From contig JBDNFQ010000213.1 in assembly GCA_041689715.1 (NCBI GenBank), positions 1-38,902 on the forward strand: DNA of 38,902 nucleotides. The letters are read 5' to 3'. Source of the stretch: Bacteroidia bacterium. GTDB taxonomy: Bacteria; Bacteroidota; Bacteroidia; NS11-12g; UBA9320. The translations under genes were made by a program, and so were the position numbers. Under the pieces are notes generated by a model. That model was given only the letters and a program-made list of their open reading frames with translations. It did no database searches and was not told the DNA's origin. Below are positions 11,036 through 38,902 of the stretch, in pieces (positions within the stretch are counted from its first letter, which is position 1; each line of letters opens with the position of its first letter).

Positions 11036-11056
11036 CGAATGGTCTTAGGCGATATT

Positions 11057-11954: not shown

Positions 11955-11959
11955 AATTA

Positions 11960-13401: not shown

Positions 13402-13553
13402 GATTAAACAAGTTGTTCCTTCTTTGTCCTGAATGTTTTTTGAGTGAAAAGAGAAAATTTATCGAAGGGTGGACTAACTAAGGATACTTAAAGACAGTTC
13501 AATACAAAACATAACTATTGTAATAGTGGCCATACGCTTACCGTGATTTCTGT

Positions 13554-13721
13554 CTAATTATACGTAAAAACAGGTTCGTTTTGTGATACAACTTCCCTTT
13601 TAGTCATAAGGGTATAGCCAATTATTACGCCTATTATACTACCTAAAATAGCAAGTGTATAACCAATAAAGACAAGGCCGAATTGGTGCTTCTTTGGGAA
13701 AGTTTGATTGCTAGGACTCAC
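13554..13721 (-). CDS. Candidate 55-aa single-pass membrane protein downstream of selD (GTG start)
   Basis: Hand translation gives VSPSNQTFPKKHQFGLVFIGYTLAILGSIIGVIIGYTLMTKREVVSQNEPVFTYN*. The Gly-zipper-like TM helix is convincing. There is no ATG start, it is below the ORF-track cutoff, and its 3' part overlaps a dispersed 13-mer repeat. Confidence 0.3.
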   Translation of the reverse strand: MSPSNQTFPKKHQFGLVFIGYTLAILGSIIGVIIGYTLMTKREVVSQNEPVFTYN

Positions 13722-13741
13722 TTAGTATCCGAAGATACTAA
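13722..13741 (-). other. 8-bp stem with UUCG tetraloop hairpin between selD and the small TM ORF
   Basis: TTAGTATC-CGAA-GATACTAA on the plus strand, which gives a UUCG loop on the minus-strand RNA. The U-run precedes rather than follows the hairpin, so it is not a canonical terminator. Confidence 0.4.
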
Positions 13742-13780
13742 AAAAGATAGGGATCTAAATGGAAGAAGTTTGCGTATTTG

Positions 13781-14812
13781 CTACGCCACATATATTAAAA
13801 ACTCGTCTTGCTCTGTCAGTTCGCCGAATGGTTGGGCATCGATTCCATTTGATTTTAATAGACTTTCTACCTCAGCGGCGGAGTCTGGTTCTACAGCTAT
13901 AAGGAGACCTCCACTCGTTTGTGGGTCGCATAGGATATCACGGTATGATGCATTAGCTAGTTTTACTTTTTCACCATAACTGTCCCAGTTTCTAGTGGTT
14001 CCGCCAGGTACACACTTCTGCTCTAGATAATATCCTACTTCATCAAAAATGGGAATTTCCTTATAGTTCAGTTTTGCAGATAATTGGCTGCCCTCGCATA
14101 TCTCTGTCAGGTGACCCAGAAGTCCAAATCCAGTAACATCGGTCATAGCGGTAATACCTTTTATGCCAGCTAGTTGTTGACCTATTTTATTTAGCTTAGA
14201 CATAGAATCAGGAGCTATATGCTCATGTTCTGCTAGCAGCTTACCTTGTTTTTGAGCAGTGGTGAATATACCAACACCTATTGGCTTAGTTAGGTACAGT
14301 TTACATCCTTTTGTAGCGGTGTTATTTTGTTTCAGGTTAGCTATATCTACACGGCCGGTTACAGCTAAGCCGAAGATAGGCTCAGGACTATCTATACTAT
14401 GTCCACCTGCTAGCATAATGCCCGCTTCTGCACACGAAGCACGACCACCTTCTAGTACTTGCTGGGCTACTTCTGGCGGAAGCTTATCTATAGGCCAGCC
14501 TAGTATTGCAATAGCTAATAATGGCGTTCCTCCCATTGCGTATATGTCACTTATGGCATTGGTAGCAGCTATTTTTCCGAAGGTAAATGGATCGTCTACT
14601 ATTGGCATAAAGAAGTCAGTAGTACTTATCACAGCAGATCCGTCACCCAAATCATAAACAGCTGCATCATCTCTACTATCATTGCCCACTAGTAGGTTTT
14701 TATCCGTATTGGCTGGCGTACTTGTTTTTAGCATCTTACCCAGCACCTTTGGCGATATTTTGCATCCGCATCCGGCACCGTGACTATATTGTGTTAGTTT
14801 TATTTCTTTCAT
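13781..14812 (-). CDS. selD: Selenide, water dikinase SelD (selenophosphate synthetase), Cys-type
   Basis: 343 aa. N-terminal [16 protein letters not shown] motif (Cys, not Sec, at the catalytic position). AIR-synthase-like fold motifs (DDAAVY, TTDFF.P.VDDP..FG.IAA.NA.SD..AMGG.P). Confidence 0.95.
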
Positions 14813-15825
14813 AAGTTCAGCTTTTCCAGTGCCAGAGCATTCTCGTAGTGGTTTGTATTGTTTCGCAAGATAGTGGTTACGGTGCGAGTAGCTTCTCTAT
14901 TTTTCCCTTTAGCATAAAGCTTATCGTAGTAAACAAGTGAAAGTAAAGCTACTTCGTAGTATTTTTTTTCTGAAAGTAATTCTAAAGCCAAATTTACCTT
15001 TTCTAAACCCAGTCTTTTAGATAGTTTTAGTATAGATTCAGCTAGTAGATGATCCCCTACTTGAGTGTATTCTTGGACTAAGTGTATAGCTCTCTTTTCT
15101 GCGGGTACATCTATGAAGATTAAGTTTGTGGCTCTCATTTGTGTATGAATAGGCTGCGGTACATTCACAGTGCCTATACTGTAGCTTTCGTCCTCTATCC
15201 AGATAGCCCGAGTTCTATCCAGTTTACTTATTTCTTGATGCAGGTCATTACTAAACTGCTCAGATGTCGGTTGAGGTTGTTCCCCTATCCCACCAAATGC
15301 AGAACCCTTGTGATGGGCAAGACCTTCTAAATCAATAACTTGATGCCCGAGTTTTTTTAATTCACTCAGGATATACGTTTTCCCACTGCCAGTGTAGCCG
15401 CCAAGTAGTCTGATTTCGATTGGCATAGCTAGTCTTTCTAGCACATAGCTTCTGTATGCTTTGTATCCTCCATTGATCACACTCAGTTTCCCAAAATCAT
15501 TATCTGACAGATGCTTAGCAAAAGATTGACTTCTCATTCCGCCTCGCCAGCAGTGGATTATGGCAGAGCCTTCTGGTGCTGCTTTTGTAGAATTATGTAT
15601 AAAATTAACTAGCTTAGGATTTACGAGTGCAGTCCCTAGTTCTATAGCTGCTTCTTTAGATACTTGCTTGTACGTGGTCCCTACTTGTATTCGCTCTTCG
15701 TCAGAAAATAAAGGAATATTGATAGCATTTGGGATATGGCCTTGCTGGTACTCTTTTGGTGAGCGGACATCAATTATGGGCCTAGTGCTGGATAGTGCTT
15801 CCGATATATTGATGTTATCAACCAT
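14809..15825 (-). CDS. selU: tRNA 2-selenouridine synthase (SelU/MnmH/YbbB)
   Basis: Rhodanese domain with active-site loop [11 protein letters not shown]-loop GGYTGSGKT. Its TGA stop overlaps the selD ATG (ATGA). The first ATG is at 15825 (MVDNINISE...). The ORF-track start at 15840 is a TTG. Confidence 0.9.
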
Positions 15826-15948
15826 GTTGTAGTTATACAAACCCTTAAAACTTATTTAGGTTCAAGGTTAAGCAATGTTTATCTATTGTATTAGAAAGTT
15901 GGGATATTCATGAAAAGAAGAAGTTATTCTAAGATGCTCGTATAAAGA

Positions 15949-20367: not shown

Positions 20368-23025
20368 TTAGAATAAGTTGGGGCCGAGCCATTTCTTCAT
20401 AATATCTAAATCAGATCCTTTTCGTTTTGCATACTCAGCTACTTGGTCTTCACTGATCTTGCCTACAGCAAAATACTTACTTTCAGGATGTGAGAAATAA
20501 AGACCAGACACAGATGCTGCTGGATACATAGCAAAGCTTTCTGTAAGGCTAATGCCGGTATGCTTTTCAACTTCTAGCAGCTCCCAAAGTGTGGCTTTTT
20601 CAGTATGGTCTGGGCTAGCAGGATAACCTGCTGCCGGACGAATCCCTTGATATTTTTCGCGAATAAGTTCATCATTGGTTAATTGCTCATCAGCAGTATA
20701 TCCCCATATGGATGTACGTACCTCATGATGCAGACATTCTGTAAAAGCCTCTGCAAGTCTGTCTGCTATAGCTTTTACTAGTATAGAGTTATAGTCGTCG
20801 TGGTTTGCTTCGTACTGCTCTATCATCTTCTCTATACCTATACCTGCAGTCACAGCAAAAGCTCCTAGGTAGTCTTGCTTACCACTACTCAATGGAGCTA
20901 TGTAGTCGGACAGAGATATGTTGGGTATCTCTTTTCCCATTTTACGCTGTTGGCGTAAGAAATTGAAAGTTGTACCTGTTTCAGAGAGTTTTACATCTCC
21001 ATTTTCTTCATTTGCAGGGAATATGCCTACCACGGCTTTAGCTTTTAGTTTCTTATTAGAGATGATGTCATCTAGCATGGCCTTAGCATCGGCAAATAGT
21101 TTTTTGGCTTCTTCTCCTACATATGGATCTTCGAATATATTGGGATACCTGCCACGTAGTTCCCAAGTCTGAAAAAAGGGTGTCCAGTCTATGTATTTAC
21201 TTACTGTCTCTAGGTCAAAATCTTCATACACCTTAATGCCAAGTTTCACTGGAGTAGGAGGGGTATAGTTAGCCCAGTCTAGTATTAATTTATTATCTAA
21301 AGCCTCCTTAAATGTAAGTATGTTTTTATCTGCTTGTCTTGCGGCATGTTGTACTGCTAACTCTGCATACTCTGCTTTTATATCTGCTTGAAACTTTGCT
21401 CTACTACTATCTCCTATGAGCTGACCAGCTACGGGTACAGATCTAGACGCGTCTAGCACGTGCACAATAGGTCCAGAGTAGTAAGGTGCTACTTTTACTG
21501 CTGTGTGTACTCTACTGGTCGTGGCTCCTCCTATCAGCAGCGGGTACTTCATTCCTCTTCGCTCCATCTCTGTAGCTACATCTACCATTTCATCTAGACT
21601 AGGAGTTATGAGTCCACTAAGGCCTATTACGTCTACATTATGTTTGATAGCTGCGTCTAATATTACATTAGCGGGTACCATTACACCTAAGTCTATTATT
21701 TCATAGTTATTACACGCTAATACTACACCTACTATATTTTTACCTATATCGTGTACGTCACCTTTTACGGTGGCTAGTAGTATCTTACCTTGTGTGCTAG
21801 CTGCAGATTTGTCTGCCTCTAAATAGGGCTGTAGATAGGCTACAGACTTTTTCATTACCCTGGCACTTTTTACTACTTGTGGTAGAAACATCTTACCCGC
21901 CCCGAATAGATCTCCCACTACATTCATACCCGCCATGAGTGGACCTTCTATGACATGAAGTGGTTTGTCATATTCTTGTCGTGCTTCTTCGGTGTCCTCA
22001 TCTATGTAATCTGTGATACCTTTTACCAGCGAGTGTTTCAGTCTTTCCTGTACACTTTGCTCTCTCCAGCTTATGTCTACCGTGAGTTTTTTGCCGCCGC
22101 CTTTTACGGTTTCTGCATAGTCTACCAGTCTCTCGGTAGCATCATCTCGTCTATTGAAGAGTACGTCTTCTACACGCATAAGCAAGTCTTTCGGTACTTC
22201 AGCATATACTTCTATCATACCAGCATTTACTATACCCATATCTAATCCTGCTTGTATAGCATGATATAAGAAAGCAGTGTGCATAGCTTCACGTACTACA
22301 TTATTACCTCTAAAACTAAAGGAGATATTACTTACACCACCACTTACTTTTGCGTAAGGTAGATTTTCCTTGATCCAGCGTGTGGCGTTTATGAAATCTA
22401 TGGCGTAGTCATTATGCTCCTCTATACCAGTAGCTACCGTTAGGATATTTGGGTCAAAGATGATATCAGAAGCCTGGAAGCCTACCTGCTCAGTAAGTAT
22501 TTTATAACTACGCTCACAGATGGCTATTCTCTTTTCATAGGAGTCTGCTTGGCCGTTTTCATCAAAAGCCATGACTACTGTAGCAGCACCGTATCTTTTA
22601 ATTTTTGTAGCCCGTTCTATGAAAGTTGCTTCACCGTCTTTTAGACTGATAGAGTTTACTATGCCTTTGCCTTGTATTACTTTTAGTCCTGCTTCTATGA
22701 TTTCCCACTTGCTAGAGTCTATCATCACAGGCACACGACTGATATCGGGTTCTGCGGCTATCAGATGTAGAAATTTGACCATGGCCTCTTTGCCATCGAG
22801 CATTCCTTCATCCATATTTACATCTATGACCTGAGCTCCATTCTCTACTTGTGAGCGGGCTACAGACAGTGCCTCGTCATATTTGTTATTTAATATGAGT
22901 TTGGCAAAGGCTTTGGAACCCGTAACATTGGTTCGCTCACCTATATTGATAAAATTTATATTAGGTGTCTGTACCATAGGTTCCAGACCGCTAAGTCGCA
23001 GGTAGTTTTGTATTGATTTTCCCAT
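20368..23025 (-). CDS. metH: Methionine synthase MetH lacking the N-terminal homocysteine-binding domain (pterin-binding, B12-cap/B12-binding and AdoMet-activation modules only)
   Basis: 885 aa. It begins at the inter-domain linker (LRLSGLEP...[19 protein letters not shown]), equivalent to about residue 340 of E. coli MetH. B12 motif [12 protein letters not shown]-terminal activation domain (GYPA.PDH.EK..L..LL). Confidence 0.95.
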
Positions 23026-23059
23026 TATCCGTATGTAGAAGTATTAGGTAATAGAGAAG

Positions 23060-23167
23060 CTTATCTGGTCCGTCTGTTGACGGATAGGATGTAGCACCTT
23101 GAGTATGAGTTGTCTTTCAGGTTGCTAAGACTTCTATGGGCCTAATCCCTCAGTCTTTCTTTATAAG
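23060..23167 (-). promoter_or_regulatory. SAM-I (S-box) riboswitch in the metH leader
   Basis: Minus-strand RNA: CUUAUAAAGAAAGACUGAGGGAUUAGGCCCAUAGAAGUCUUAGCAACCUGAAAGACAACUCAUACUCAAGGUGCUACAUCCUAUCCGUCAACAGACGGACCAGAUAAG. P1 is CUUAU/AUAAG. P2 is AGACU/AGUCU, enclosing the GAGGGA...GGCCC core. GCAACC and GGUGCUA junction boxes are present. P4 is CCGUC/GACGG. Confidence 0.85.
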
Positions 23168-23172
23168 TCCTG

Positions 23173-23195: not shown

Positions 23196-23231
23196 AAAAA
23201 AACCCTTCTGTCGAGTGACAGAAGGGTTTTT
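23196..23231 (-). terminator. Rho-independent terminator after the 2,000-aa T9SS cargo gene
   Basis: 10-bp stem CCCTTCTGTC (23203-23212) / GACAGAAGGG (23217-23226) with a 4-nt loop. It is flanked by A7 and T5, so the minus-strand RNA has the hairpin followed by U7. Confidence 0.8.
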
Positions 23232-23257: not shown

Positions 23258-26200
23258 CTATTGGTTTCTGATTAATTCAATCTGACCCTCTACAGGACCA
23301 AGACCTTCATTCTCTACATCAAATAGGAATTTATAATTTACAATATAGAAGTAAGTACCTTCTGGGCAAGTTGATCCCGTGTTATTTACTCTTCCATTCC
23401 AATTCGTATTTACATCTGTAGTTTCAAATACTCGCTCACCCCATCTGTTGAAAATCTTTATCTGGAATTCTTCTATAGATGTGCCATCTACAACGAATTC
23501 ATCATTCTTTTCGTCACCGTTAGGTGTAAAAACATTGTAGAATGTGATTTTTCTGGAGAAAGTATTGGTAATCATTTGACAAGTATCGTCAGGACATTCT
23601 GCGTCAGAAGTACTAACAACGTATAGACATACTTCAAAAGTTCCTACTTGGTCATTCCAATTGAAACATGGGTTGACTTCTAGTTTCTCTTCTAAGGTAG
23701 GTTCAAAGGTCCATCTGTATTTGTCTGGATTGGCTCCTGTAGATGTATTTGTGAAGCAAAAGTTAGGCTTAGCAGATGAATCTATAGTAAAGCCAGCTTT
23801 AACATCGTCTACTGTGATTTGTATAGTATCTCTGTCCCAACATCTAGGTATTATATCATACTCAGGTGCTACAATAACATTGTAGACCCCACCTTGTGGC
23901 CAACTGTAAGTGATGCTATTGTCTGGCAAAGTTTTACTGATACTATCATTCGGATCTAAGTACCACTTCATTCTAGTGTATCTAGGGTCCAATGTATCTG
24001 CGGTGAACGTAATCACCTCATTTACACATACAAAAGTATCAGAAGCTAGTATTTCTACTGGAGGTAGCGGATTCACTATCACGATAATCTTACGTTGGTT
24101 TATTATCTCGGCACTAGTATCTGGGAATATTCTGCTACATCTCTGTGATGTGCCTGGTATTAAATCCTCCTGAGTTAGATACAGCTCGTATGTGCCAGGA
24201 GTATAATAAGTATGACTATATTTATCTCCAATAGCAGACGGTGCAGTAAATGTGCCATCTCCCCAATCCATTTGGAAAGTAGGGGTACTCACATCGCCTT
24301 TACCGATATTGATAAGCAACACACTATCTCCGGCACATATGATAGCCGAGTCATTCTTATTCCAAACATCTAGGTCAAACTCAAACTGTGGCTGCGGACC
24401 TGGTATATAGATTCGTTGTGTTATTTCTTCTATACAACCTAGCTTAGACCATACTTTTAGTGTCACGTCAAAGAATCCGCCAGACGTAAAATTGTGAGAA
24501 GGGTTCTGTAATATACTCTTACGTGTACTGTCTCCAAAGTCCCATTCCCATCTTACTATACTCTCACAAGAAAGGTCTACACCATTCGTACAAGTATCCT
24601 TGTCTGCACATGGGTCATCTACAAAACTAGTGTCAAAGAATTGTAAAATAGAAGCACAATTGACAATGGTATCATCTAATGAAAATCCAGGATGTAGTTT
24701 AGATATATATACGGTAAGGAAAGTGGTATCTCTACAGTTTACACTATCCTTGGTCACTATGGTAATAGTATATGTTCCAGGATCTGTATAAATATTATTT
24801 GGATTAATTGATCTGTAGTCGTCCCATACCCCGTCTGTACTATCCCAATCTAGAGTATACGTCTCTATATTATTCGTATATCTGTCAAAATCTTGCCAGA
24901 ATGGGAAGACTTTAATAGGGTATGTAAAGGGATCTTCTTCACCATATTGGTAATAACGTTGATAGTAGTCTACATCGAGCACCAGACCCTGACAAATATT
25001 CTCGTTTTTCAGAGAATAGTCATTTAGGAATCCTACATTCAATAGACGTGCAGACCTGGCTTCACAACCCACTGTACTATTAAGGAAAAGGGTAGGCACC
25101 ATGGGCCCGTTTGCTGCTCTATAAATAGTGTCTTTTATAGTCGGGTCACATTCATTAGGAGTAATAATTTCTGGATATCTGTAGGAATATTTCCATACAC
25201 CAGTAATAGTATCCAATTGTCCGTTTCCAGAGGTGTCTTGTAGTAAGGTATCATACCCTTGGAGAGATGAATCTCTAAAGTGAAGTACTTCTGCTACTTC
25301 TATGAAATTGACAACATCATCTCTATTCGTATTAGGCATGGAGTCTACCCGAGAGATAGAGTCTTGTGCAGGGTTTATTTGAGATTTGATAACTGCACCA
25401 GCACCATCTTTAGCATAGGTAGTATCTTTAGTAAACTGAGGATCATATAATGTGCCTCTATATCTCTTGTTACCTGTTTGCCATACGGAAGAGTCTATTT
25501 TTTGGTGCCAAGGTTTTACCCCGAAAGTAAAGAATTGGCTGAGTCCGGTGGTATCTAAACAACCAACGGTACCATCTCCTAAATAGTAAGGGACATCTTC
25601 TGGTGGTATGTCCGCATATCTTAAACCAAGCAATTGGTCAAAAGCGTCTACTACAAGGTCATTGGCGTTACGCGTATTGGCTATTATTTGCCAATCTTTA
25701 ATAATAAGGGTAACAATAGTATCCAGTATTTTATTTCCTGTAATATCGCTCAATTCTCTTCTTACTACATAGTTGTATAACCAGTCTTCACCATTGTATG
25801 TATAGTTTTCGTCATTTCTTCCAGCTACTGGACCTGTGTACGGTTGGTAGTATTTAAACTCTTCTACGTATACAGCTAAGTTTGGTCCTCTGCCTATACC
25901 TTGGTAACCCCAAGCCCATCTAAGTGTTCTAATACTATCTTGTAATTCTTGGTCCATTTTGAAGTACGCAGTACCTCCGGCACACATAAAGTGTCTGCCA
26001 AGTCCGTCTGCAACAGGTTCTAATATTTCAAACTCTGGAGCTAAAGGAAGTATTCTGAATAAATCTGGGTAGTAAGAGGTGTCCATACATTCTGGTGGTC
26101 CACCCAATGGATTAGGAGGTCCGTTACCTACTATTAGTCCTAGGGTAAATGAGCCAAAAGGAGTACGCTTATATGGGTCGCCAATATCAAATTTAGTGTA

Positions 26201-29200
26201 TTCTTTTACAAATGTGGTACCTGTATTACCTACTAATGCATATGGCAAAACAAATGGTATAGCTGTACCCAAAGCACCGTCGGGTGCTTTTACTGCTCCA
26301 CCATTGTATACATTCCAAGAGGAAGTAAGTGCTGGAGGGAAAGCTAGTGTATCGTAGTTTACTTCAAACCACTGTTGCGTACAACCCGGTTTAGTATCAG
26401 CGATATCAAATTCTAGAACATACTGAAAAAATCCATTAGTATATGGACAAGGGAAACCTGAAGTCCATTCTAGCCCATCAGCACTCGGAGGAGTAAGAGC
26501 AAGTGACTTAGTACCTGTTGCATTACAATGAAGCGGGTGTATGGTGTCTTCTTGGTATAGTGTAATATTAAAGCATTCTGCATTATCTAAGAACCACTTG
26601 GCTCTATGTGCCGCTGAGTCTACGAATACTTGAGATCTAGTTTCTGTAACTAATATGCCGAACTTAACAACCTGAACAGGATAGTTAGATGGAGCAGCGT
26701 ACGTAGTATCTGGTGCCGTCTCTTCTACAGTTGCATTTACAGTAATACAATCATTTGGAGATAGCTTAAATTGCTCATTAGGCAGTAGAGTTACTGTAGC
26801 AGGACCTGTAATAGTACGTCCTGGGCCACCGCCACCTCCGCCAGCACCACCTGGAGGTGGTGGGAGCATCACAGTAGTAATAGTAACTCCAGTAGGAATA
26901 TCAAATTCCATATCATAGTATGTTACAGTCCACTTTGTGCTTCCGTTGCCCGCGAGCGGATTGTTTCTACCTAGCCAATCTTCATTATGGTACGTAGTAT
27001 CTGTAGCTATATTAGCAGCTACAAAAGTATCTAGTGCAGCATCCCAATAAAAATCGGTTCCACAGAATTTGCTTGGCGGTCTTCTTACAATCCAATTCCC
27101 TAATTTTCCATATGGATAATTTACGAATGCTGGAATAGTAATACCCATGTAGGTATATGAAGAATCTATAGGTACCGTAATTATAGTATCGCCTGGCACA
27201 ATCATAGGATTGGCAGAATATACATTTACAGGGTAACAGAAAGTATCCGGTTTGAATAATCTGACTTCTACTATAGGAGTAGTATAGTTTCTGCCATCTT
27301 GCATGGTTCTATACACCTCATCCCATGGCGTATACCAATGTATTGGGATACTATCTATTCTAAAGTTACAGTTAATACCAATATTTTTACTTACCCATGG
27401 TCTACTGTCTGTAGTACACTGAGGAGCAAATTGATCTCCCATATTCCATATTCTAAAAATATTAGGTCTATAATCTCTAATGTTTATCGTAGGGTCTACG
27501 GCTGTTTGGTCACCCGTACCAACACCCCCTTTTCCTACAGGAGGCACATAGTTAAATACGAAGCGTTTACGAGGATTGACGCCAAATCTATAACTCGTTC
27601 CACTAGCCGTAGGAGATGTAAGGTAACTTATTTTATGGTAGGTAGTTACGCCACCAAAAATAACTTTTAATGAGTCCTTGCCTGCATCCCAAGACACAGT
27701 ATATCCTTGTCTTGTGACGGTCGCTCCAGCAGCAAATTCTTCTTCATTAATTTTGAAGTTGCCACGAGGTTTTTCTTGCCAAGTTCTAAAGAAAAATTTG
27801 TAGTTTCCTGTTCCGTTATCAAATTCACGATCAAATGTGAAATCATAATAGTAAGTTGCAGAATCTTCATCTAATCTATTCCAATCGTTTTGATAAAAGC
27901 TCGAATTATTTACCATTTGCACAGAATCTCTAATCTCACATTGGTAAGCCTCATCTTGAGCTACACGGTTAAATGCTACCTCTATGGTAGACCCAGGTCC
28001 TATTACTTGCACGGTGTCGTATATGGTAACATCACATGGCCCAGCTATCAGTCTTAGACTTATCATCCACGGACCTGGACCGTATGATTTGGTAGGGGCA
28101 AGGGTTTTATTGTTCACGTTTGCAGGGCCAGATGGGGGATCGCCAAAGTTCCATAAAAACGAACTTACACCAGGTATAGCAGGTAAATTAGCTACACTAA
28201 ACTTAATAGGATTATCAGGTATACATGCTGGGTTAGGAGTAGATAGTATGTTGGGTTCCATAACTATATTAGTCACCGCAGCTTTGAAAGTAAATGTATC
28301 TGTACACCCGTATGCGGATACAACGAGAGAACCGTCGAACTGGCCGTGCACTCTATACATGTGTCTTATTTTATCATCATTAGCTGGGCCGGTCCACCAT
28401 ACTGTATTAATGGTGGCATTCCCGTCTACCCTATTTCCATCGCCGAATATCCAACTGAATGAATCTACATCGACTAAGGGGACTAATGAGGTGTTTTGAT
28501 AGATACCTAATGTGGAGTCGCAACCAGGATTGGGAGCTGGAGTAAGATTACTAAAGGATATACCTAAATCTGGATGGACGAAAATGTAATCTGTATACGT
28601 TACTTTCGAAACGCAACCACTGGTATCTTCAGACTCTATAACAAAGTCAAAAGTACCGCCTGTAGGGTCAGTAATCGTAACACAAAACTCAATAGGGAAC
28701 ACGGGATTAAGTGTATCGATACGGAGACCATTACTAAACAGATAAGTCTGTCGAGCTATGAGACCGCCAGGAGCTTTAGATGTGTCTTTAAAACAAAAGC
28801 TATTGTTAGCGAAACACTGCACAGAGTCGTTGGTTCTGTATAGGTGTATATCTGGAGAAGGGCTTATATTTACAGTTAAGGTCTTGGTACAATTACCTGC
28901 AGGACCGGTACCCGTAAAAGTTACCGTATAGGTTCCGGCTTTGGCATAACCATACGTAGGTTTTGCTACGTTACTAGTAGCTGATCCTGCCGGAGTAAGA
29001 CCAAAATCCCATAAAATGGTGGTAGTAAAACCAGGAGAGTTTGCATCAAATGAAATAAGCTGACCTTCACAAAAAGTACCTATAGTACCTTTAGTCCCAT
29101 CGGTGAGGGTCATCTCAGGAAAGCAATTTTGTGCAAAAGCAGAAAATCCAGCAAACACTAGCAATAGTGTTACGATATACTTAGATAGCACATCTTGAAT

Positions 29201-29215
29201 AAATGATTTTTTCAT
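23258..29215 (-). CDS. Giant secreted PKD-domain protein with T9SS type-B (gliding-motility) C-terminal sorting domain and a ~1,000-aa uncharacterised core
   Basis: The signal peptide is best from the ATG at 29215 (MKKSFIQDVLSKYIVTLLLVFAGFSAFA-QN). Alternative starts are ATG 29284 and TTG 29293. N-terminal PKD-like modules (WDFG..., WIFGDGN..., WNFGDPP...). C-terminal PKD-like modules (WEWDFGDST..., MDWGDGT..., RWTFEP...). The last ~97 aa are FYNVFTPNGDEKNDEFVV...IFNRWGERVF...WNGR...GTYFYIV. Confidence 0.85.
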   Translation of the reverse strand: MKKSFIQDVLSKYIVTLLLVFAGFSAFAQNCFPEMTLTDGTKGTIGTFCEGQLISFDANSPGFTTTILWDFGLTPAGSATSNVAKPTYGYAKAGTYTVTFTGTGPAGNCTKTLTVNISPSPDIHLYRTNDSVQCFANNSFCFKDTSKAPGGLIARQTYLFSNGLRIDTLNPVFPIEFCVTITDPTGGTFDFVIESEDTSGCVSKVTYTDYIFVHPDLGISFSNLTPAPNPGCDSTLGIYQNTSLVPLVDVDSFSWIFGDGNRVDGNATINTVWWTGPANDDKIRHMYRVHGQFDGSLVVSAYGCTDTFTFKAAVTNIVMEPNILSTPNPACIPDNPIKFSVANLPAIPGVSSFLWNFGDPPSGPANVNNKTLAPTKSYGPGPWMISLRLIAGPCDVTIYDTVQVIGPGSTIEVAFNRVAQDEAYQCEIRDSVQMVNNSSFYQNDWNRLDEDSATYYYDFTFDREFDNGTGNYKFFFRTWQEKPRGNFKINEEEFAAGATVTRQGYTVSWDAGKDSLKVIFGGVTTYHKISYLTSPTASGTSYRFGVNPRKRFVFNYVPPVGKGGVGTGDQTAVDPTINIRDYRPNIFRIWNMGDQFAPQCTTDSRPWVSKNIGINCNFRIDSIPIHWYTPWDEVYRTMQDGRNYTTPIVEVRLFKPDTFCYPVNVYSANPMIVPGDTIITVPIDSSYTYMGITIPAFVNYPYGKLGNWIVRRPPSKFCGTDFYWDAALDTFVAANIATDTTYHNEDWLGRNNPLAGNGSTKWTVTYYDMEFDIPTGVTITTVMLPPPPGGAGGGGGGPGRTITGPATVTLLPNEQFKLSPNDCITVNATVEETAPDTTYAAPSNYPVQVVKFGILVTETRSQVFVDSAAHRAKWFLDNAECFNITLYQEDTIHPLHCNATGTKSLALTPPSADGLEWTSGFPCPYTNGFFQYVLEFDIADTKPGCTQQWFEVNYDTLAFPPALTSSWNVYNGGAVKAPDGALGTAIPFVLPYALVGNTGTTFVKEYTKFDIGDPYKRTPFGSFTLGLIVGNGPPNPLGGPPECMDTSYYPDLFRILPLAPEFEILEPVADGLGRHFMCAGGTAYFKMDQELQDSIRTLRWAWGYQGIGRGPNLAVYVEEFKYYQPYTGPVAGRNDENYTYNGEDWLYNYVVRRELSDITGNKILDTIVTLIIKDWQIIANTRNANDLVVDAFDQLLGLRYADIPPEDVPYYLGDGTVGCLDTTGLSQFFTFGVKPWHQKIDSSVWQTGNKRYRGTLYDPQFTKDTTYAKDGAGAVIKSQINPAQDSISRVDSMPNTNRDDVVNFIEVAEVLHFRDSSLQGYDTLLQDTSGNGQLDTITGVWKYSYRYPEIITPNECDPTIKDTIYRAANGPMVPTLFLNSTVGCEARSARLLNVGFLNDYSLKNENICQGLVLDVDYYQRYYQYGEEDPFTYPIKVFPFWQDFDRYTNNIETYTLDWDSTDGVWDDYRSINPNNIYTDPGTYTITIVTKDSVNCRDTTFLTVYISKLHPGFSLDDTIVNCASILQFFDTSFVDDPCADKDTCTNGVDLSCESIVRWEWDFGDSTRKSILQNPSHNFTSGGFFDVTLKVWSKLGCIEEITQRIYIPGPQPQFEFDLDVWNKNDSAIICAGDSVLLINIGKGDVSTPTFQMDWGDGTFTAPSAIGDKYSHTYYTPGTYELYLTQEDLIPGTSQRCSRIFPDTSAEIINQRKIIVIVNPLPPVEILASDTFVCVNEVITFTADTLDPRYTRMKWYLDPNDSISKTLPDNSITYSWPQGGVYNVIVAPEYDIIPRCWDRDTIQITVDDVKAGFTIDSSAKPNFCFTNTSTGANPDKYRWTFEPTLEEKLEVNPCFNWNDQVGTFEVCLYVVSTSDAECPDDTCQMITNTFSRKITFYNVFTPNGDEKNDEFVVDGTSIEEFQIKIFNRWGERVFETTDVNTNWNGRVNNTGSTCPEGTYFYIVNYKFLFDVENEGLGPVEGQIELIRNQ

Positions 29216-29295
29216 ACGTGATTTGTTTTTATAGATATTATATTGTGAATCCAAAAAGTTTGTAAATTTAATGCGGTTGTTCATATTTTTCAAGT

Positions 29296-30546
29296 TTAGG
29301 GACGTTTTAGCGTAATTTTAATATTTTTAGACTGAGGTGTCTCACCATTTAGTGTGTAACTTATAGTGGCAATATATATTCCATTGAAACATTCGTTTCC
29401 TATGTTATATAATTTTCCGTTCCATCCTTCGTCTGGATTTTGCGAAGCATAAACCATCTTTCCTTCAGCATTAAAGATTTGAATACTGAAGTTATCATAG
29501 CCTGATATGTCTACCTTATATGTGTCATTGCTGCCATCAGCTCCAGGAGTGAAAACATCAAATATTTCTATGCTTCCTCTTCTTCTTATGGTTGTCTTAG
29601 TTTCTATTGGCACAGCACATAACTGGTTTACAGGTACGGCCTTTATGCTGTGCTCGCCCACTTGTTGTATTTGTGTAGTAAATACATGAGCGTTAGTTTC
29701 TTGCAGTACATTGTCTAAAAACCAATTTGCTATAACGCTTTTGTCATCTAGTGAGTACGAAAATTCAGAGTCGTTAATTTCTTTACTACGTATGGATGAC
29801 TTAAATGTTTGAATATAAACTGCTGTACTTGTAATGCTTACCTCATTTTTCAGCTTAAATACAACTTTCCCTTCTTGGGTACATTTGTATTCAAGAAAAG
29901 TGCTATTGGTGGCTAGCTGTCTATCATTCGCAAACCAATTTCCTTTTTCAGCAGACTTGAGTACTACGGTCTCTCCTAGGCATGGGTTTAGATTAGAAGC
30001 TATAATGGATAGTTTGGTCGCAGCAACGCTTATAGGCGGCACATCTTGCTTGTCCGTTTTATTATTCCCATCATTTACACTGTATTTTGTCTCGTTTGTC
30101 TTAGAGCTAACTCGTTCTTCTACGCTAGAAGATTTGTCTTCTTTTGGAGCAGTATTACTTGTATTTTTAGATTCAGCGGTATTTGTCTTAGCAGTATACG
30201 CAGTAGTGATAGTAGTTTCCGTGTTTTCTATTTTGGTTTTTTCTTTATCAGATAAGATAGCTACTTGCTGCTCTTTATTTTGAGTTTTTGGCAGGAGAAT
30301 TATTTCAGGGGTATTCTCATTGTAAATAACGATACCTACTGCTGCTATACCGCTGGCAAATAGGGCTACTTTTATTATGTTGGTAGCGGAGCCAAAATAT
30401 GCGGTAACTTGAGAAAGTAAACCAGCAGATTGCGAAGTGCTAGCTGCTACACTACTCCACACATCTGGCGGGGCAGGTGTACTATGCCCTTGCAAAGTAT
30501 CCTTTAGTAAATTTTCAAATTCTGATATGTCTTTGAATTTTTTCAT
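29296..30546 (-). CDS. Anti-sigma-like single-pass membrane protein that ends in a T9SS type-B C-terminal domain
   Basis: 416 aa. It starts 3 nt after the ECF sigma stop. About 55 aa of soluble N-terminus (…HSTPAPPDVWSSV…) precede one hydrophobic helix (IIKVALFASGIAAVGIVIY). An S/T/K/N-rich linker and a beta-rich domain follow. The C-terminal ~92 aa are IEIFDVFTPGADGSNDTYKV...IQIFNAEGKMVY...WNGKLYN...GIYIATISY. The anti-sigma role is inferred from position and topology only. Confidence 0.6.
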   Translation of the reverse strand: MKKFKDISEFENLLKDTLQGHSTPAPPDVWSSVAASTSQSAGLLSQVTAYFGSATNIIKVALFASGIAAVGIVIYNENTPEIILLPKTQNKEQQVAILSDKEKTKIENTETTITTAYTAKTNTAESKNTSNTAPKEDKSSSVEERVSSKTNETKYSVNDGNNKTDKQDVPPISVAATKLSIIASNLNPCLGETVVLKSAEKGNWFANDRQLATNSTFLEYKCTQEGKVVFKLKNEVSITSTAVYIQTFKSSIRSKEINDSEFSYSLDDKSVIANWFLDNVLQETNAHVFTTQIQQVGEHSIKAVPVNQLCAVPIETKTTIRRRGSIEIFDVFTPGADGSNDTYKVDISGYDNFSIQIFNAEGKMVYASQNPDEGWNGKLYNIGNECFNGIYIATISYTLNGETPQSKNIKITLKRP

Positions 30547-30549
30547 AGG

Positions 30550-31092
30550 TTAAAACCAATCTTGAAGCCACTCTTGTAATTGTTTGCGGGCCTTGAAAAG
30601 TTGAGTCTTGGAGGTGCTTTCGCTTATTTCTAAATAGTCGCTTATTTCTTTGTGTGAGTATCCGTCTACTATAAACATGTTGAACACTGTGCGATAGCCT
30701 TCTGGCAATTGCTGCACTAGGGTCATCATTTTTTCTGCATCCAGGCTTCCTGTTTCTATTTTAGCAGTGAGTGGTAGCTCATTGCTATTAAGCTCTGATA
30801 CGTCTAGGTGCATTTTGCGTTTGCGAATAAGTTCTATGCTAGAGTTCACAAATATGCGTTTCATCCATCCCTCAAAACTCCCAGTAAACTTGAATTTGCT
30901 TATGTTTTTGAACACCTTAATAAAGCCTTCTTGCAAAGCATCTTTGGCTTCATCTTCGTTGTTCATATATCTTAAACAGATGCTGTACATTGTTCCTGAG
31001 TGTATTTCGTATATTCTTCTAAATGCTTTGTTATCTCCATTACTGCAAGCCTTAATCAATGATATTTCATCGTGTGATTCACTAGTGCTCAT
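30550..31092 (-). CDS. ECF-type RNA polymerase sigma-70 family factor
   Basis: 180 aa. Sigma-2 region (FRRIYEIHSGTMYSICLRYMNNEDEAKDALQEGFIKVF, FEGWMKRIFVNSSIELIRK). Sigma-4 HTH (LPEGYRTVFNMFIVDGYSHKEISDYLEISESTSKTQLFKARKQL). Confidence 0.9.
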   Translation of the reverse strand: MSTSESHDEISLIKACSNGDNKAFRRIYEIHSGTMYSICLRYMNNEDEAKDALQEGFIKVFKNISKFKFTGSFEGWMKRIFVNSSIELIRKRKMHLDVSELNSNELPLTAKIETGSLDAEKMMTLVQQLPEGYRTVFNMFIVDGYSHKEISDYLEISESTSKTQLFKARKQLQEWLQDWF

Positions 31093-31143
31093 TGCTCTGG
31101 ATGTTATTTAGATGTACTCAGTTGGTTATTGGTTGCCTAAGAT

Positions 31144-31608
31144 TTATATTTTTTTTACGTGGTATTTTTCTGCTAGGTATTCCTTGAGGTTTTCTGCATA
31201 ATAACCTACGGCTTCTAGGGGCTCTATTATTTCTGTTTCATTCAGTCCTTCTAGCACTCTTTTAAACTGTATGCTTATGATACGCTGCTCAGAGTTGGCT
31301 ATGAATGAAGCACTAAATAGGTGAAAATTGAGATGTGCCAATTCTTCCATAAACGTAGCCAAATGCTCATCTGCCGGATACTCGCAGATAGGCGAGACTA
31401 TCTGAAAAATACTGGCTATATTTTGTCTATCGAAGTATTGCCACTGCGTAGTTTCTGCGGGTTGCCATATGTCTACATAGAGTTCTGTAGTATCTCCTCG
31501 CTTTATAAGGTACTCTCCTTCGTTTTCGCAACGAATTTGTTCGGGTTTTAGCTGCAGATGCTCTGCTACTACTTTCTCGAATAAGGTTATTGCTTCTTTA
31601 ATTTGCAT
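31144..31608 (-). CDS. Hypothetical cytoplasmic protein, possibly YbjN / type III chaperone-like fold
   Basis: 154 aa, acidic, with no signal peptide. The fold guess rests only on size and pattern and has low confidence. It lies 51 nt upstream of the sigma gene on the same strand. Confidence 0.55.
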   Translation of the reverse strand: MQIKEAITLFEKVVAEHLQLKPEQIRCENEGEYLIKRGDTTELYVDIWQPAETTQWQYFDRQNIASIFQIVSPICEYPADEHLATFMEELAHLNFHLFSASFIANSEQRIISIQFKRVLEGLNETEIIEPLEAVGYYAENLKEYLAEKYHVKKI

Positions 31609-31620
31609 AATTTAAAAGGA

Positions 31621-31628
31621 CAAAAATA
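31621..31628 (-). promoter_or_regulatory. Bacteroidota -7 promoter box TATTTTTG upstream of the 154-aa gene; possible start of the sigma / anti-sigma-like / cargo transcription unit
   Basis: The plus strand reads CAAAAATA, so the minus strand reads TATTTTTG, a perfect TAnnTTTG. It ends 12 nt before the ATG at 31608. I saw no comparable box in the 51-nt gap before the sigma gene. Confidence 0.4.
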
Positions 31629-36274: not shown

Positions 36275-36715
36275 ATGGATAGCAAATTTAATATAAGGGT
36301 GTATGGAATATGGCTAAAGGGCGATAAAATATTAATAAGCAATGAAAATATTGATGGTTTTAAGATGCTCAAGCTACCAGGTGGAGGCTTAGAATATGGT
36401 GAAGGGCCAGTGGACTGTGTTATACGAGAGTTCAAAGAGGAACTAGGGGTAAGTATAGAGGTAAATAGCTTACTGCATACTACAGAAAATTTTATTCCAA
36501 GTGCTTTTAAGAAACACGAACAAGTGATTGCTATACACTATTTGGTTACTTCTAATGATGCCATTGCTTCTATGGAGATTACTCAACCTACTAGACTAGG
36601 AGGTAAAAACTATCTTATGTTTGAGTGGTGTACGCTTAACGCAGAGTTACTCACCAAATTGACTTTTGAGATGGATAGGCAAGCATTAATTCATCTAATA
36701 AAGAGGTGTTACTGA
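36275..36715 (+). CDS. NUDIX hydrolase
   Basis: Nudix box GGGLEYGEGPVDCVIREFKEELG. I prefer the ATG at 36275 because the earlier TTG/ATG starts (36263, 36266) would overlap the divergent pyrC start codon. Confidence 0.8.
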   Translation: MDSKFNIRVYGIWLKGDKILISNENIDGFKMLKLPGGGLEYGEGPVDCVIREFKEELGVSIEVNSLLHTTENFIPSAFKKHEQVIAIHYLVTSNDAIASMEITQPTRLGGKNYLMFEWCTLNAELLTKLTFEMDRQALIHLIKRCY

Positions 36716-38902
36716 GCCTTTAGCATTCTTAGCTGTGCCATCGCATCCTCTGTAGTAGATGGTGTAGAGGTATGGCACTACTGGTACTTTAGCTCCTCTG
36801 TAGTAACCATCCCAACTTGTTAGATTAGATTCTCTAGAGTCGAATACTTTCTCGCCCCATCTAGAATATATTGTGATAAAGTATCCAGGTTGTAAAACAG
36901 GGTTTTTGTATGGAAAAAGTTCGTTCAACCCGTCTTCGTTTGGGGTAAATGCATTAGGCAAGTACAGTTCATTTGGCAAAGCCTCTGGATCTACAGTTAG
37001 CAACAGGCTGTCTGCTCCAAAGCATCCATATCCGTCTGTTATTTTAAGTCTATATGTGCCGTCTAAAGCGGCAAGTATTTGTCTAGAAATTTCTTCTGTA
37101 CTCCACTCGTACTCAGCAAAACCTTCTGGGCCAGACAGCAGTGTAGGGGAGTTTATACAGACCGTGGTGTCATCTCCTAAGTCAAATGTGGGAGAGTTTG
37201 AAAAACTAAGTATTACAGAGTCTGTTTTCTCGCATCCGAATCGATCTCCAACGGTAACCTTGTATGTGCCAGGGCTGGTTACTCTAATGCTTCTAGAGTT
37301 AGCACCTGTATTCCAATTATAGGTATCTCCATCTGGTCCAGCATCTAAATTTATATCAAGCTCATCGCAAAAATGAGTATCCACTCCTAGTTCTAAGTTT
37401 ATGATAGGGTTCGTAATGGAAAAGGAGTCCGAGTTTATGCAGTGTCTCTGTGTTACTCTAACCCACTGTATGCCACCTTCAATTATTGTAGTGGCTGAAG
37501 TAGTAGCATTATTAGACCATAGATATTCTCCCTCTTCTATGTCGCCTACATCTACATCGTATCTAAATTCGTTGCAGTAAAAAGCATCTTCTATAAGAGG
37601 TTTAGTTGGCTGCCAAACTCTTGTGGTATCTCTAGCAGAGCAATTGAGATTTCTTACTACCACTGAGTACCTGCCGGGGTCTGTTATTCTTATACTTCTA
37701 GTCGTCTGGGGTGGCACAGTATTCCATTGATAGCTTAAATCTGGTAAGCCTACGTCAAGGTCAAAATCAATATTCTCACAGACGATTGTGTCTGGCAGCA
37801 GACTGAAAGCCGGTACGGGGTCTGAGCTCAGTGTTATAGTATCTGAGTAGCTACATTTACCGTAGGATACGTCGGCAATGTATATTCCTACTTTGTTTAC
37901 TGTAATCCTACTTCCTGTTTGACCATCGCTCCAGTTTACAGATACGGCATCTGGTGTTTTAGTGTCTAAAACCTGGATAAAATCGTTGCAGAATATGATA
38001 TCTCGACCTAGTTCAAAAGATTTAGATGATCGTATACGTACACCATACTTATAATCATCAGTACAGATATCGGAGGTCACTTCTAAAGTTATAGTATAGT
38101 CGCCATTTCCAGGATAAACGTACTCTACTTGGGTGGCCTTGTCATAAGTGGTAAGGGTGTCATTGGTAGTGGTGGGATCTCCGAAATCCCAAAAAAAAGT
38201 GGCTTGAAGTCCCGCTTTTACGATGCTTGTATTTATTACTTTTACAGTATCTCCGCACTCAAAAGAGTATGCTCCACCTACAGTCGTTCCATTAGGTATT
38301 CTATAGTTAGCTAAAATATCGAATTGGCAGTTGATTACACTTATTTGGTAGTCTCTAATTGTCTGTCCTATTAGTTTGCCATTTCTATATTCTTTAACAG
38401 AAATACCAATACTGAATTCACCTATTTGATTCGGAGTTATTGTGATTTCTCCAGTATTAGAATTAATGTTTAAGGACGGAGAACCGGGAATCTGATTTTG
38501 TACATTGAACGAATTTTTCCAGATAGCTTTTCTAAAAGGAGGGGCTTCATATTCTGATTGCTCATCCGGCCGTCGTCTGTTTTCAGGAAAGTCTGCTCCT
38601 CCTAAATAGGGAGTACTGAGACTGTATACTAATGAGTCCCCATCCGGGTCTAAAGCACTATGATTAATTGTAAGAGGAGCGTCAACACACACGTATATGG
38701 GGGGTATTTCCACAAAATAGGGACTGCTGTTAGAGGTAGCTTCAGGAGGTATCTTAGTCCACGCAGTAAATCCTGAGCTGCCTGGATTATTGATATTGTC
38801 AATTTTGTCATTTCTACAGCATCTCTGCCAGCTAAGTATTACTCCACTACTACCAGGATTAATAATACGAATAGTAGAATATAAAGAGGCCTTTACGCAT
38901 AC
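36695..38902 (-). CDS. Large T9SS type-B CTD cargo protein, 5'-partial (reading frame stays open to the window edge)
   Basis: The frame has no stop from 38713 to 38902 (…SWQRCCRNDKIDNINNPGSSG…), so the GTG at 38713 is not the true start. One PKD-like module (FFWDFGDPTTTND...GDYTITLEV). Five tandem ~65-70-aa Cys-bracketed repeats at 36992-38017 (C..-LD.G-...Y.W..G......I.V...G.Y.V.V....C...D). C-terminal LYLPNAFTPNEDGLNELF...IYSRWGEKVF...WDGYYRG...YLYTIYY. Confidence 0.85.
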   Translation of the reverse strand, partial: VCVKASLYSTIRIINPGSSGVILSWQRCCRNDKIDNINNPGSSGFTAWTKIPPEATSNSSPYFVEIPPIYVCVDAPLTINHSALDPDGDSLVYSLSTPYLGGADFPENRRRPDEQSEYEAPPFRKAIWKNSFNVQNQIPGSPSLNINSNTGEITITPNQIGEFSIGISVKEYRNGKLIGQTIRDYQISVINCQFDILANYRIPNGTTVGGAYSFECGDTVKVINTSIVKAGLQATFFWDFGDPTTTNDTLTTYDKATQVEYVYPGNGDYTITLEVTSDICTDDYKYGVRIRSSKSFELGRDIIFCNDFIQVLDTKTPDAVSVNWSDGQTGSRITVNKVGIYIADVSYGKCSYSDTITLSSDPVPAFSLLPDTIVCENIDFDLDVGLPDLSYQWNTVPPQTTRSIRITDPGRYSVVVRNLNCSARDTTRVWQPTKPLIEDAFYCNEFRYDVDVGDIEEGEYLWSNNATTSATTIIEGGIQWVRVTQRHCINSDSFSITNPIINLELGVDTHFCDELDINLDAGPDGDTYNWNTGANSRSIRVTSPGTYKVTVGDRFGCEKTDSVILSFSNSPTFDLGDDTTVCINSPTLLSGPEGFAEYEWSTEEISRQILAALDGTYRLKITDGYGCFGADSLLLTVDPEALPNELYLPNAFTPNEDGLNELFPYKNPVLQPGYFITIYSRWGEKVFDSRESNLTSWDGYYRGAKVPVVPYLYTIYYRGCDGTAKNAKGSVTPLY

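Follow-up and report, generated by a model that had tools for sequence, protein, structure and literature searches.

The stretch of DNA analysed here (the window; 38,902 nucleotides of contig JBDNFQ010000213.1, GenBank assembly GCA_041689715.1, from a Bacteroidia bacterium) carries on its minus strand four closely packed open reading frames (ORFs) that encode, in the order in which they would be transcribed, a 154-residue protein (p154), an extracytoplasmic function (ECF) sigma factor, a 416-residue protein (p416) and a giant protein with the domains of a type IX secretion system (T9SS) cargo. An earlier note on this DNA, made from the sequence alone, had taken p416 for an anti-sigma factor that itself carries a T9SS type-B C-terminal sorting domain (CTD). 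In the analysis reported below p416 emerges as very probably the cognate anti-sigma factor of its neighbour, probably built like the Dma anti-sigma factors of Bacteroides, with two immunoglobulin (Ig)-like domains and a type-B CTD where Dma has an outer-membrane barrel. Table 1 lists the features of the locus; loci retrieved for comparison carry L numbers.

Table 1. Features of the p416 locus (positions in the window)
Feature	Position	Strand	Basis or remark
p154	31144-31608	-	ORF list
ECF sigma factor, 180 aa	30550-31092	-	Pfam and NCBIfam matches
p416 (416-aa protein)	29296-30546	-	ORF list
p416 residues 1-40	30427-30546	-	predicted cytoplasmic sigma-binding motif: helix, PxPP.VW, helix
p416 residues 57-75	30322-30378	-	predicted single inner-membrane helix (signal anchor, N-in)
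p416 residues 79-185	29992-30312	-	hypervariable, low-complexity, disordered tether
p416 residues 186-325	29572-29991	-	two Ig/fibronectin type III (FnIII)-like beta-sandwich domains
p416 residues 326-416	29299-29571	-	T9SS type-B C-terminal sorting domain
Giant T9SS type-B cargo ORF, up to 2,011 aa	23258-29293	-	PKD repeats and CHU_C
Housekeeping (sigma-A type) -7 box TATTTTTG (TAnnTTTG)	31621-31628	-	read directly; upstream of p154
Candidate ECF-type promoter GGCAACC-N16-CATCTA	31109-31137	-	in the p154-sigma spacer, upstream of the sigma gene
Intrinsic terminator closing the operon	23196-23231	-	AAAAACCCTTCTGTCACTCGACAGAAGGGTTTTTTT read directly; 11-bp perfect stem, then T7
S-adenosylmethionine (SAM) riboswitch	23058-23169	-	Rfam RF00162, 69.4 bits, full length; leader of metH
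metH	20368-23025	-	right after the SAM riboswitch leader

The four ORFs and their close spacing, as first described, were borne out by the ORF list and by direct reading of the sequence. p154 and the sigma gene are separated by 51 nt and the sigma stop codon and the p416 ATG by 3 nt, and the p416 stop codon is followed after 2 nt by a TTG that can start the giant ORF and after 80 nt by the ATG ahead of the giant protein's signal peptide. The order p154, sigma, p416, giant and metH is held in all loci examined, including that of an orthologue only 29% identical, and the stop codon of sigma touches or overlaps the start codon of its partner in all orthologues and mostly also across the sigma clade. 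Because the SAM riboswitch of metH comes directly after it, the terminator truly ends the giant-gene transcript. A generic scan for sigma-70 promoters and terminators was uninformative on such limits, since its promoter-like sites occurred at chance level and it missed the real terminator.

The sigma protein matches Pfam Sigma70_r2 (51.5 bits) and Sigma70_r4_2 (60.4 bits) and NCBIfam TIGR02937 (89.7 bits; cutoff 42.9), and by these domain matches it is an ECF (group IV) sigma-70 factor with regions 2 and 4 only. It is 45% identical (E 4e-58) to a Parabacteroides sigma factor whose gene lies 9 nt upstream of a gene for an OMP_b-brl_2 (PF13568) anti-sigma factor. Many of the loci that were fetched by their type-B CTDs have a related sigma gene (phmmer 1e-35 to 1e-54) right before the gene of a 290-470-aa partner, and these partners share one plan: the motif ..LF(R/K)..L......P...W..(V/I)S, followed at about residues 40-85 by a transmembrane (TM) segment, then by a linker of low complexity and a CTD. 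Four of the loci had been fetched through the CTD of a giant protein and are an independent confirmation of the CTD-bearing partner, as the small gene between their sigma and giant genes also encodes a CTD. A metagenome collection was also scanned with an alignment of the sigma factor only, and this survey returned 80 loci, mostly with sigma factors 40-49% identical to that of the window. Here 68 of 74 downstream partners have the N-terminal motif ..LF..L....PP...W..I ahead of a TM segment, a TM segment is present in 69 of the 74, and the gaps from sigma stop to partner start cluster between -4 and +10 nt, so that the adjacency to the sigma gene is conserved far beyond close relatives. Because the +1 position, the start/stop coupling and the N-terminal motif with its TM segment are conserved across the sigma clade, p416 is very probably the cognate anti-sigma factor, and the role that it had first been given thus stands on clade-wide grounds.

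The C-terminal parts of the partners in this survey are of several kinds. Among the 61 that are complete, Pfam finds CHU_C in 13 (21%) and OMP_b-brl_2 in 14, plus further OMP_b-brl / DUF3575 matches, and a type-A CTD in none of the 61. The remaining partners are shorter and frequently have 2-8 tandem copies of the N-terminal motif. As read from these sequences, one module of motif and TM segment stands at position +1 to one sigma clade and is joined through long linkers to varied distal domains, two of which are addressed to the outer membrane. In a neighbour-joining tree of the sigma factors, which is a rough one, CTD types fill two or three deep clades and the main barrel clade is separate, with a few barrel types nested among the CTD types; the tree suggests an old diversification with occasional domain swaps. 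As for the tandem motif itself (..E..PP...W..I), there are two copies in most short forms (e.g., L091:4579-5436), five in the partner at L114:2957-4114 and about eight in that at L116:4543-6540, and L042:8919-9974 is another partner of this kind; such repeated cytoplasmic motifs raise the question whether one anti-sigma factor holds several sigma molecules.

Orthologues of p416, searched for with its non-CTD part, form about 30 clusters of 402-422 aa that are covered over their full length and all contain PF13585, and the exact family is present in only about seven GTDB species representatives, all of them metagenome-assembled genomes (MAGs) of uncultured Bacteroidia. In their alignment the first ~78 residues, including the hydrophobic segment, are near-invariant even at 35-40% overall identity. 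Hypervariable, low-complexity sequence fills residues ~80-185, conservation is moderate from 186 to 325, and the CTD is well conserved. AlphaFold, run on the family alignment, predicts N-terminal helices at residues 7-18 and 28-34, has low confidence for residues 24-176, and gives a very confident all-beta structure for residues 180-325 (predicted local distance difference test score, pLDDT, ~95) and a confident beta-sandwich for the CTD (pLDDT 85-93). The tether consists to 73% of P, E, S, T, Q, K, N, G and D and has pLDDT values below 50; we estimate that its 107 residues would span about 37 nm when fully extended, and that the two Ig-like domains would add several nm. Foldseek matches of the beta region are tandem Ig/FnIII arrays and bacterial adhesins, the residues C189, W204, W275 and C310 in this region are invariant in the family, and distant partners have PKD domains where p416 has Ig-like domains.

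p416 has exactly one hydrophobic segment (Kyte-Doolittle 2.2), with the invariant K59 at its N side and acidic residues at its C side. The TM segments of the CTD class as a whole have mean net flanking charges of +0.97 on the N side vs -0.81 on the C side, and the direction is N-in for 29 of 37. A signal-peptidase-like site of the small-x-small-Q type was found in 0 of these 37 partners, whereas the giant protein has one (AFA followed by Q), and there is no in-frame ATG near the hydrophobic segment of p416, which starts only after a conserved 55-residue domain. These signal-peptide and topology calls, which were made from hydropathy, flanking charge and cleavage-site motif, agree with the layout proposed at the outset, one hydrophobic helix after ~55 soluble residues and then a large outer part (tether, Ig-like domains and CTD), and they favour an uncleaved anchor over a cleaved signal peptide.

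The C-terminal domain of p416 scores 55.3 bits against Pfam CHU_C (PF13585; cutoff 27) when the whole protein is searched and 59 bits when only the tail is used, and against TIGR04131 (cutoff 35) it scores 32.8 bits with the whole protein, which is just under the cutoff, and 36.5 bits with the last 92 residues; scores against the type-A CTD models are below their cutoffs. The type-B assignment that had been made from a shared motif skeleton is thereby upheld for the last ~92 residues, and on these profile matches the C-terminus of p416 is a bona fide type-B T9SS domain. It is 36% identical to the CTD of the giant protein over 72 residues (E 6e-13). Similarity between the two proteins is confined to the CTD, so the Ig-like stalk of p416 is not a copy of part of the giant protein. 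Among ten distant partners CHU_C is above the Pfam cutoff in eight and always at the extreme C-terminus, and overall 37 sigma/partner pairs have the CTD-bearing architecture, a recurrence well above what chance would give.

An inner-membrane anti-sigma factor that carries a T9SS export tag had been described as a topological paradox for which no characterised example was known. Both parts of that statement are softened, and the paradox is in large part removed, by the Dma family, whose experimentally supported members are anti-sigma factors of the same sigma clade with a disordered tether that lets them extend from the cytoplasm as far as the outer membrane (PMC10927553, PMC13088901, PMC9308784); it is the CTD-bearing form that looks undescribed. 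Dma1 of Bacteroides thetaiotaomicron (BT_4721) is annotated as OMP_b-brl_2 and is encoded with the ECF21 sigma factor Das1 (PNAS 2024; PMC10927553). Its N-terminal 40 residues sequester Das1 in glutathione S-transferase (GST) pulldowns (Pardue et al., PMC10927553), and beyond them the chain has a single helix in the inner membrane, then a long disordered stretch, and ends in an 8-stranded outer-membrane barrel (PMC10927553). In the authors' proposal the sigma factor is set free by a proteolytic cascade, and they report that C-terminal fragments alone reach outer-membrane vesicles while full-length Dma1 stays with cells and membranes (PMC10927553). Further barrel-type examples are Reo/EcfO of Bacteroides fragilis and a pair in P. 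vulgatus that is induced 33-fold by envelope stress (PMC9308784), which serves as a precedent for autoinduction.

The barrel-class partners in our survey are Bacteroidales "porin family / PorT family" proteins with PF13568, their genes lie 9 nt downstream of the ECF sigma gene, and a gene for a NigD_N-like lipoprotein (PF22221, 88 bits) comes next, an order that matches the published das1-dma1-nigD2 order (PMC10927553). A hidden Markov model (HMM) built from the cytoplasmic N-termini of this class gives p416 26.6 bits vs 8.2 bits for the best of 425 shuffled decoys; with it 36 of 36 CTD-type N-termini outscore all decoys, and 14 of 15 do so in the reciprocal test. In an hhalign comparison p416 residues 6-87 are collinear with barrel-class residues 6-84 (E 5e-4, probability 31%). 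Against a database of 5.8 billion sequences an 80-residue profile of the N-terminal module brought up only five fragments, since so short a profile does not attain significance there. The linkers are of comparable length (median 205 aa for CTD types, 165 aa for barrel types) and consist to ~60-66% of disorder-promoting residues. p416 has no match to the outer-membrane barrel domains PF13568 and PF13505. It is thus not a strict member of the Dma family; it is probably built like Dma and working like it, and that p416 is an anti-sigma factor of Dma-like architecture is a conclusion that we hold with high confidence.

Upstream of p154, TTATTTTTG is conserved in 6 of 8 orthologous loci, with near-variants in the other two (L007 and L009). 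Promoters of ECF sigma factors usually have an "AAC" -35 element and a "CGTC-like" -10 element. A motif close to this form, GGCAACC-N16-(A/G)C(A/G)TCTA, is conserved in the p154-sigma spacer of all eight orthologous loci, one of which (L003) has the canonical ECF CGTCTA at -10, and 12 distant loci have GGCAAC(C/T)-N16-..(T/A)CT(A/T) ahead of their related sigma genes; the exact GGCAACC-N16-CATCTA occurs a single time in the window. A CGT -10 box is known from flavobacterial ECF-type promoters (PMC9723704). From this candidate promoter the sigma factor would direct its own transcription together with that of the anti-sigma and giant genes, which would then form one autoregulated operon, and p154 appears to have a separate housekeeping promoter from which read-through into sigma is possible. 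The TAnnTTTG box and the strong terminator that had been named as limits of the unit are thus both present, but they do not enclose one simple four-gene unit, and a regulated unit that begins at p154 is replaced by one whose conserved ECF-type motif lies directly ahead of the sigma gene.

The giant protein (~1,985-2,011 aa) matches PKD_4 (115 bits), PKD (78 bits), CHU_C (73.6 bits) and TIGR04131 (47.1 bits), in keeping with the ~2,000-aa T9SS cargo first described, and its start is probably an upstream one. Its candidate starts are TTG 29293, ATG 29284 and ATG 29215, and its signal peptide ends in AFA followed by Q. In 8 of 8 orthologous loci a TTGA lies 1-7 nt past the p416 stop with the frame open, and the frame encodes an extension of ~26 residues, M.N...(K/T)FT(N/D)F(L), ahead of a signal peptide that is otherwise normal and ends in A(F/Y)(A/S) followed by Q (window 29215-29293). 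The extension is seen just past the partner stop in L001, L003, L004 and L006-L009. A codon-phase test was weak (1.6 / 1.9 / 2.0 distinct bases per phase), and the extension is therefore argued from the open frame and the peptide motif, not from codon phase. It is probable from this that the giant protein starts at the upstream TTG or ATG and is translationally coupled to p416; the extension may lengthen the signal region or serve to bind a chaperone. A third type-B CTD protein of 672 aa (36695-38713, minus strand; PKD and CHU_C, 50.9 bits) is encoded 5 kb upstream of the operon and also in orthologous loci, and the similarity score of its CTD to that of p416 is 62.5 vs 125 for the CTD of the giant protein. 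In L007 (CP121331.1, a complete long-read MAG chromosome) the sigma ORF (7454-7909) is cut short and ends in an aberrant C-terminus, and the giant gene (9257-15445) is in two pieces of 304 aa and 1,734 aa; these are most likely indel errors of the assembly, not real pseudogenes.

What follows the partner gene differs with its class: a giant ORF follows CTD types in the window's sigma clade, a NigD_N-like lipoprotein gene the barrel types and a 4HBT_2 thioesterase gene the short types. The giant ORF was found after the CTD-type partner in 5 of 12 evaluable sigma-ascertained loci, in addition to the loci collected earlier. Short-type partners (230-310 aa, with neither CTD nor barrel; L087-L147) are followed by a conserved 145-aa 4HBT_2 gene (PF13279, 69 bits; e.g., L091:5473-5910). 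On the upstream side, a p154 gene lies 50-80 nt ahead of sigma in 15 loci, all of the CTD type, and in 0 of ~60 barrel- or short-type loci; other copies of the family are at L030:1070-1552, L051:6335-6802 and L052:6282-6758. p154 has neither a TM segment nor a signal peptide. The profile of its family matches PDB entry 2plg (E 3.6e-4, residues 5-148), and three of ten family members match Pfam YbjN, CesT_Tir_1 or TY-Chap1 (~3e-5 to 7e-5), with no Pfam match for the window copy; a single-sequence AlphaFold model of p154 was unusable (pLDDT 43). We take p154 to be probably a cytoplasmic protein of the YbjN/CesT secretion-chaperone-like superfamily.

How might such an anti-sigma factor work? What the sequences show is the order of the genes, their domains, an N-terminal module homologous to that of the barrel-type partners, and a promoter motif and gene junctions that are conserved. 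We favour, with moderate confidence, an autoregulated sigma / anti-sigma / cargo operon in which p416, made to the Dma plan, is a tethered substrate of the T9SS; the binding, topology, engagement, proteolysis and direction of signalling that we infer for it would be as follows. By the precedent of Dma, the ~40-residue cytoplasmic motif of p416 would keep the sigma factor bound at the inner membrane, with the disordered tether crossing the periplasm, and by its CTD the distal end would be addressed to a PorP/SprF-like type-B receptor, to the SprA translocon or to both. Type-B CTDs bind PorP/SprF-like proteins, possibly at the periplasmic face (PMC9143113), and interaction of the p416 CTD with T9SS components is fairly probable. 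As a surrogate substrate on a tether, p416 would have its CTD engaged by the T9SS or the type-B receptor, and this engagement would strain or expose the tether and lead to a proteolytic cut, as in other anti-sigma factors and as proposed for Dma1. The freed sigma factor would then transcribe the sigma, anti-sigma and giant genes and raise the expression of all three, and newly made giant cargo, with a CTD of the same class, would compete for the machinery and damp the signal. Engagement, rather than loss of engagement, as the activating event is a tentative choice, and the opposite polarity, in which loss of CTD engagement is sensed as stress much as envelope stress is by the barrel types, is possible. 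The complete chain, in which a T9SS or type-B receptor grabs the p416 CTD, force on the tether or its exposure triggers destruction of p416, the freed sigma factor switches on the giant adhesin-like cargo and the cargo competes, is more doubtful still.

A number of observations weigh against the tethered-substrate scheme, and those that concern secretion are also the grounds for a different view, in which p416 is still a Dma-like anti-sigma factor but its co-opted CTD serves purely in the periplasm, as a sensor or docking module for some periplasmic or outer-membrane ligand and without contact with the T9SS, and conventional envelope-stress proteolysis frees the sigma factor. Being anchored in the inner membrane, p416 cannot be a conventional T9SS substrate, as such an anchor is incompatible with ordinary T9SS export, and SprA may be unable to handle a chain that is tethered there. 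No T9SS core gene and no porP/sprF-like gene was found in the window. A test for co-variation between the CTDs of the anti-sigma factor and the cargo of one locus was negative (same-locus mean 120 vs 114.5 for other loci; the own giant protein ranks first in CTD similarity for only 2 of 12 loci) and so gives no support to a shared specific receptor, and a second deep CTD-type clade has no giant gene downstream, so that the coupling to cargo is not universal. To these can be added that CTDs are Ig-like sandwiches, which are reusable as binding modules, and that barrel-type relatives of p416 respond to general envelope stress (PMC9308784). We nonetheless consider co-option unlikely, since the full type-B signature is kept above curated cutoffs in deep, divergent lineages, the domain is always extreme C-terminal like that of real cargo, the window's clade joins it to the operon of a giant type-B cargo, and the sister class bears a barrel, the other outer-membrane-targeting module, which makes outer-membrane targeting look like the selected property. 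It could also be that p416 is a pro-protein which is cut soon after insertion, its Ig-Ig-CTD ectodomain going on as ordinary surface cargo that might, for instance, assist the giant adhesin; what is left at the N-terminus would in that case be a short conventional anti-sigma factor with its stability controlled independently of the T9SS. The vesicle-borne C-terminal fragments of Dma1 (PMC10927553), the resemblance of the ectodomain to a small adhesin-like cargo and its expected co-expression with the giant protein all speak for such a cut. The absence of a signal-peptidase-like site from all 37 partners speaks against it, constitutive cleavage would leave the tether pointless, and the fusion is kept across deep clades with the length and composition of the tether maintained though its sequence is not, which suggests that the physical connection matters; we judge this pro-protein reading to be quite improbable.

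The remaining points on the adverse side concern the anti-sigma identity and its link to Dma. The curated anti-sigma domains ASD, zf-HC2 and FecR were not found in the p416 N-terminus with Pfam/NCBIfam at E <= 0.1, the TM segment is not helical in the AlphaFold model, and the charge bias of the CTD class is modest. The ECF21-like label of the window's sigma factor is a putative one that comes from sequence identity and neighbours, and the barrel class is tied to Dma indirectly, by architecture, by context and by Parabacteroides and metagenomic proteins. The lack of a curated anti-sigma match would suit an ordinary T9SS cargo with a long N-terminal extension that is next to a sigma gene by local synteny only, as would the conserved extension ahead of the signal peptide of the giant neighbour and a synteny among close relatives that reaches unrelated flanking genes (metH, an amidohydrolase). 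Such a cargo is nevertheless very improbable: in 68 of 74 loci the same N-terminal module is found at sigma +1, irrespective of the flanking genes and of the domain at the C-terminus, it is homologous to that of barrel-type partners and the equivalent region of Dma1 binds sigma (PMC10927553), the start/stop coupling is conserved, and p416 lacks a cleavage motif like the A(F/Y)(A/S) plus Q of the giant protein.

Elsewhere in the window, at 4812-8273 (plus strand) and 13781-15840 (minus strand), lie redox and selenium-flavoured housekeeping genes that have no relation to p416. They encode SelO (protein adenylyltransferase), MsrA, a BrxC-like monothiol bacilliredoxin and an aldo/keto reductase, and further along the same cluster the gene of an AIR-synthase-family protein (SelD-like) overlaps that of a rhodanese-domain protein (SelU-like).

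Outside the PorXY-SigP/PorA system of Porphyromonas gingivalis, little is understood of how the T9SS is matched to the very large load of cargo that it handles. The form with a T9SS CTD in place of the Dma barrel, joined to a giant-cargo operon, is common in environmental Bacteroidota and appears to be an undescribed variant: the Dma papers do not mention the T9SS (PMC10927553, PMC13088901, PMC9308784), and no description of a CTD-bearing anti-sigma factor was found in the literature searched, outside which most subscription-journal papers lie. The variant is widespread, accounting for the 13 CHU_C partners among the 61 and present in deep clades, and many proteins annotated as [quoted passage not shown] are thus probably regulators. 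[quoted passage not shown] The locus would also offer a genetic handle on secretion-coupled transcription, comprising a single promoter motif, sigma factor, inhibitor and cargo, and would pose the question of what a translocon or PorP-like receptor does with a substrate that is tied to the inner membrane.

Dma is the closest of the known systems. As with Dma, the p416 gene comes right after an ECF sigma gene of the same clade and is coupled to it, at a gap of 3 nt, p416 has a homologous short N-terminal module, a single inner-membrane helix and a comparable disordered tether, its C-terminal module is addressed to the outer membrane, the sigma gene would be autoregulated (by its candidate promoter), and the system is restricted to Bacteroidota. 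Unlike Dma, it lacks the 8-stranded OMP_b-brl_2 barrel by which that family is defined and bears two Ig-like domains and a type-B CTD in its place, so that delivery to the outer membrane would depend on the T9SS and not on BAM; the next gene in the window is for a giant T9SS cargo instead of a NigD-like lipoprotein, and the upstream YbjN/CesT-like gene accompanies the CTD type only. With T9SS type-B cargo, such as Flavobacterium johnsoniae SprB (with SprF) and P. gingivalis PG1035 (with PorP/PorE; PMC9143113), p416 shares the extreme C-terminal CHU_C/TIGR04131 domain and Ig/PKD-like domains ahead of it, and its gene adjoins another type-B cargo gene. Such cargo, however, has a cleavable Sec signal peptide and is released to the periplasm, whereas p416 has a cytoplasmic domain of ~55 residues and a predicted uncleaved signal anchor, and the window lacks the porP/sprF-like gene that is often next door to cargo of this kind.

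Two other regulatory systems share parts of this logic. In the PorA-PorXY-SigP pathway of P. gingivalis (PMC7712824, PMC12152298) a CTD-bearing protein likewise informs an ECF sigma pathway about the T9SS or the cell surface, and that pathway controls T9SS-related genes, but PorA is a small type-A cargo with a signal peptide and the ligand of a two-component sensor kinase, and is neither an anti-sigma factor nor membrane-tethered. In FecR/FecI systems, including the SusC-like / anti-sigma / ECF systems of Bacteroidota (PMC9249621), the periplasmic C-terminus of an inner-membrane anti-sigma factor contacts an outer-membrane protein and the signal is passed to an ECF sigma factor by regulated proteolysis. 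FecR differs from p416 in that a folded periplasmic domain without a secretion signal contacts the signalling domain of a TonB-dependent transducer, and in its N-terminal domain and sigma group.

The likeness to the FlgM/sigma-28 pair of flagellar assembly is one of concept only, in that transcription would report on the competence for secretion. The flagellar secretion machine takes the anti-sigma factor FlgM as one of its substrates, and the late cargo genes of this machine are controlled by the sigma factor that FlgM inhibits. FlgM is soluble, unrelated in sequence to p416 and fully exported through the type III apparatus, while p416 is anchored in the inner membrane, so that its release would, unlike that of FlgM, need proteolysis or extraction. 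If the tethered-substrate reading of p416 is correct, the system would be to the T9SS what the FlgM/sigma-28 checkpoint is to flagellar assembly, and it would give the first natural case of the T9SS acting on an inner-membrane-anchored substrate.

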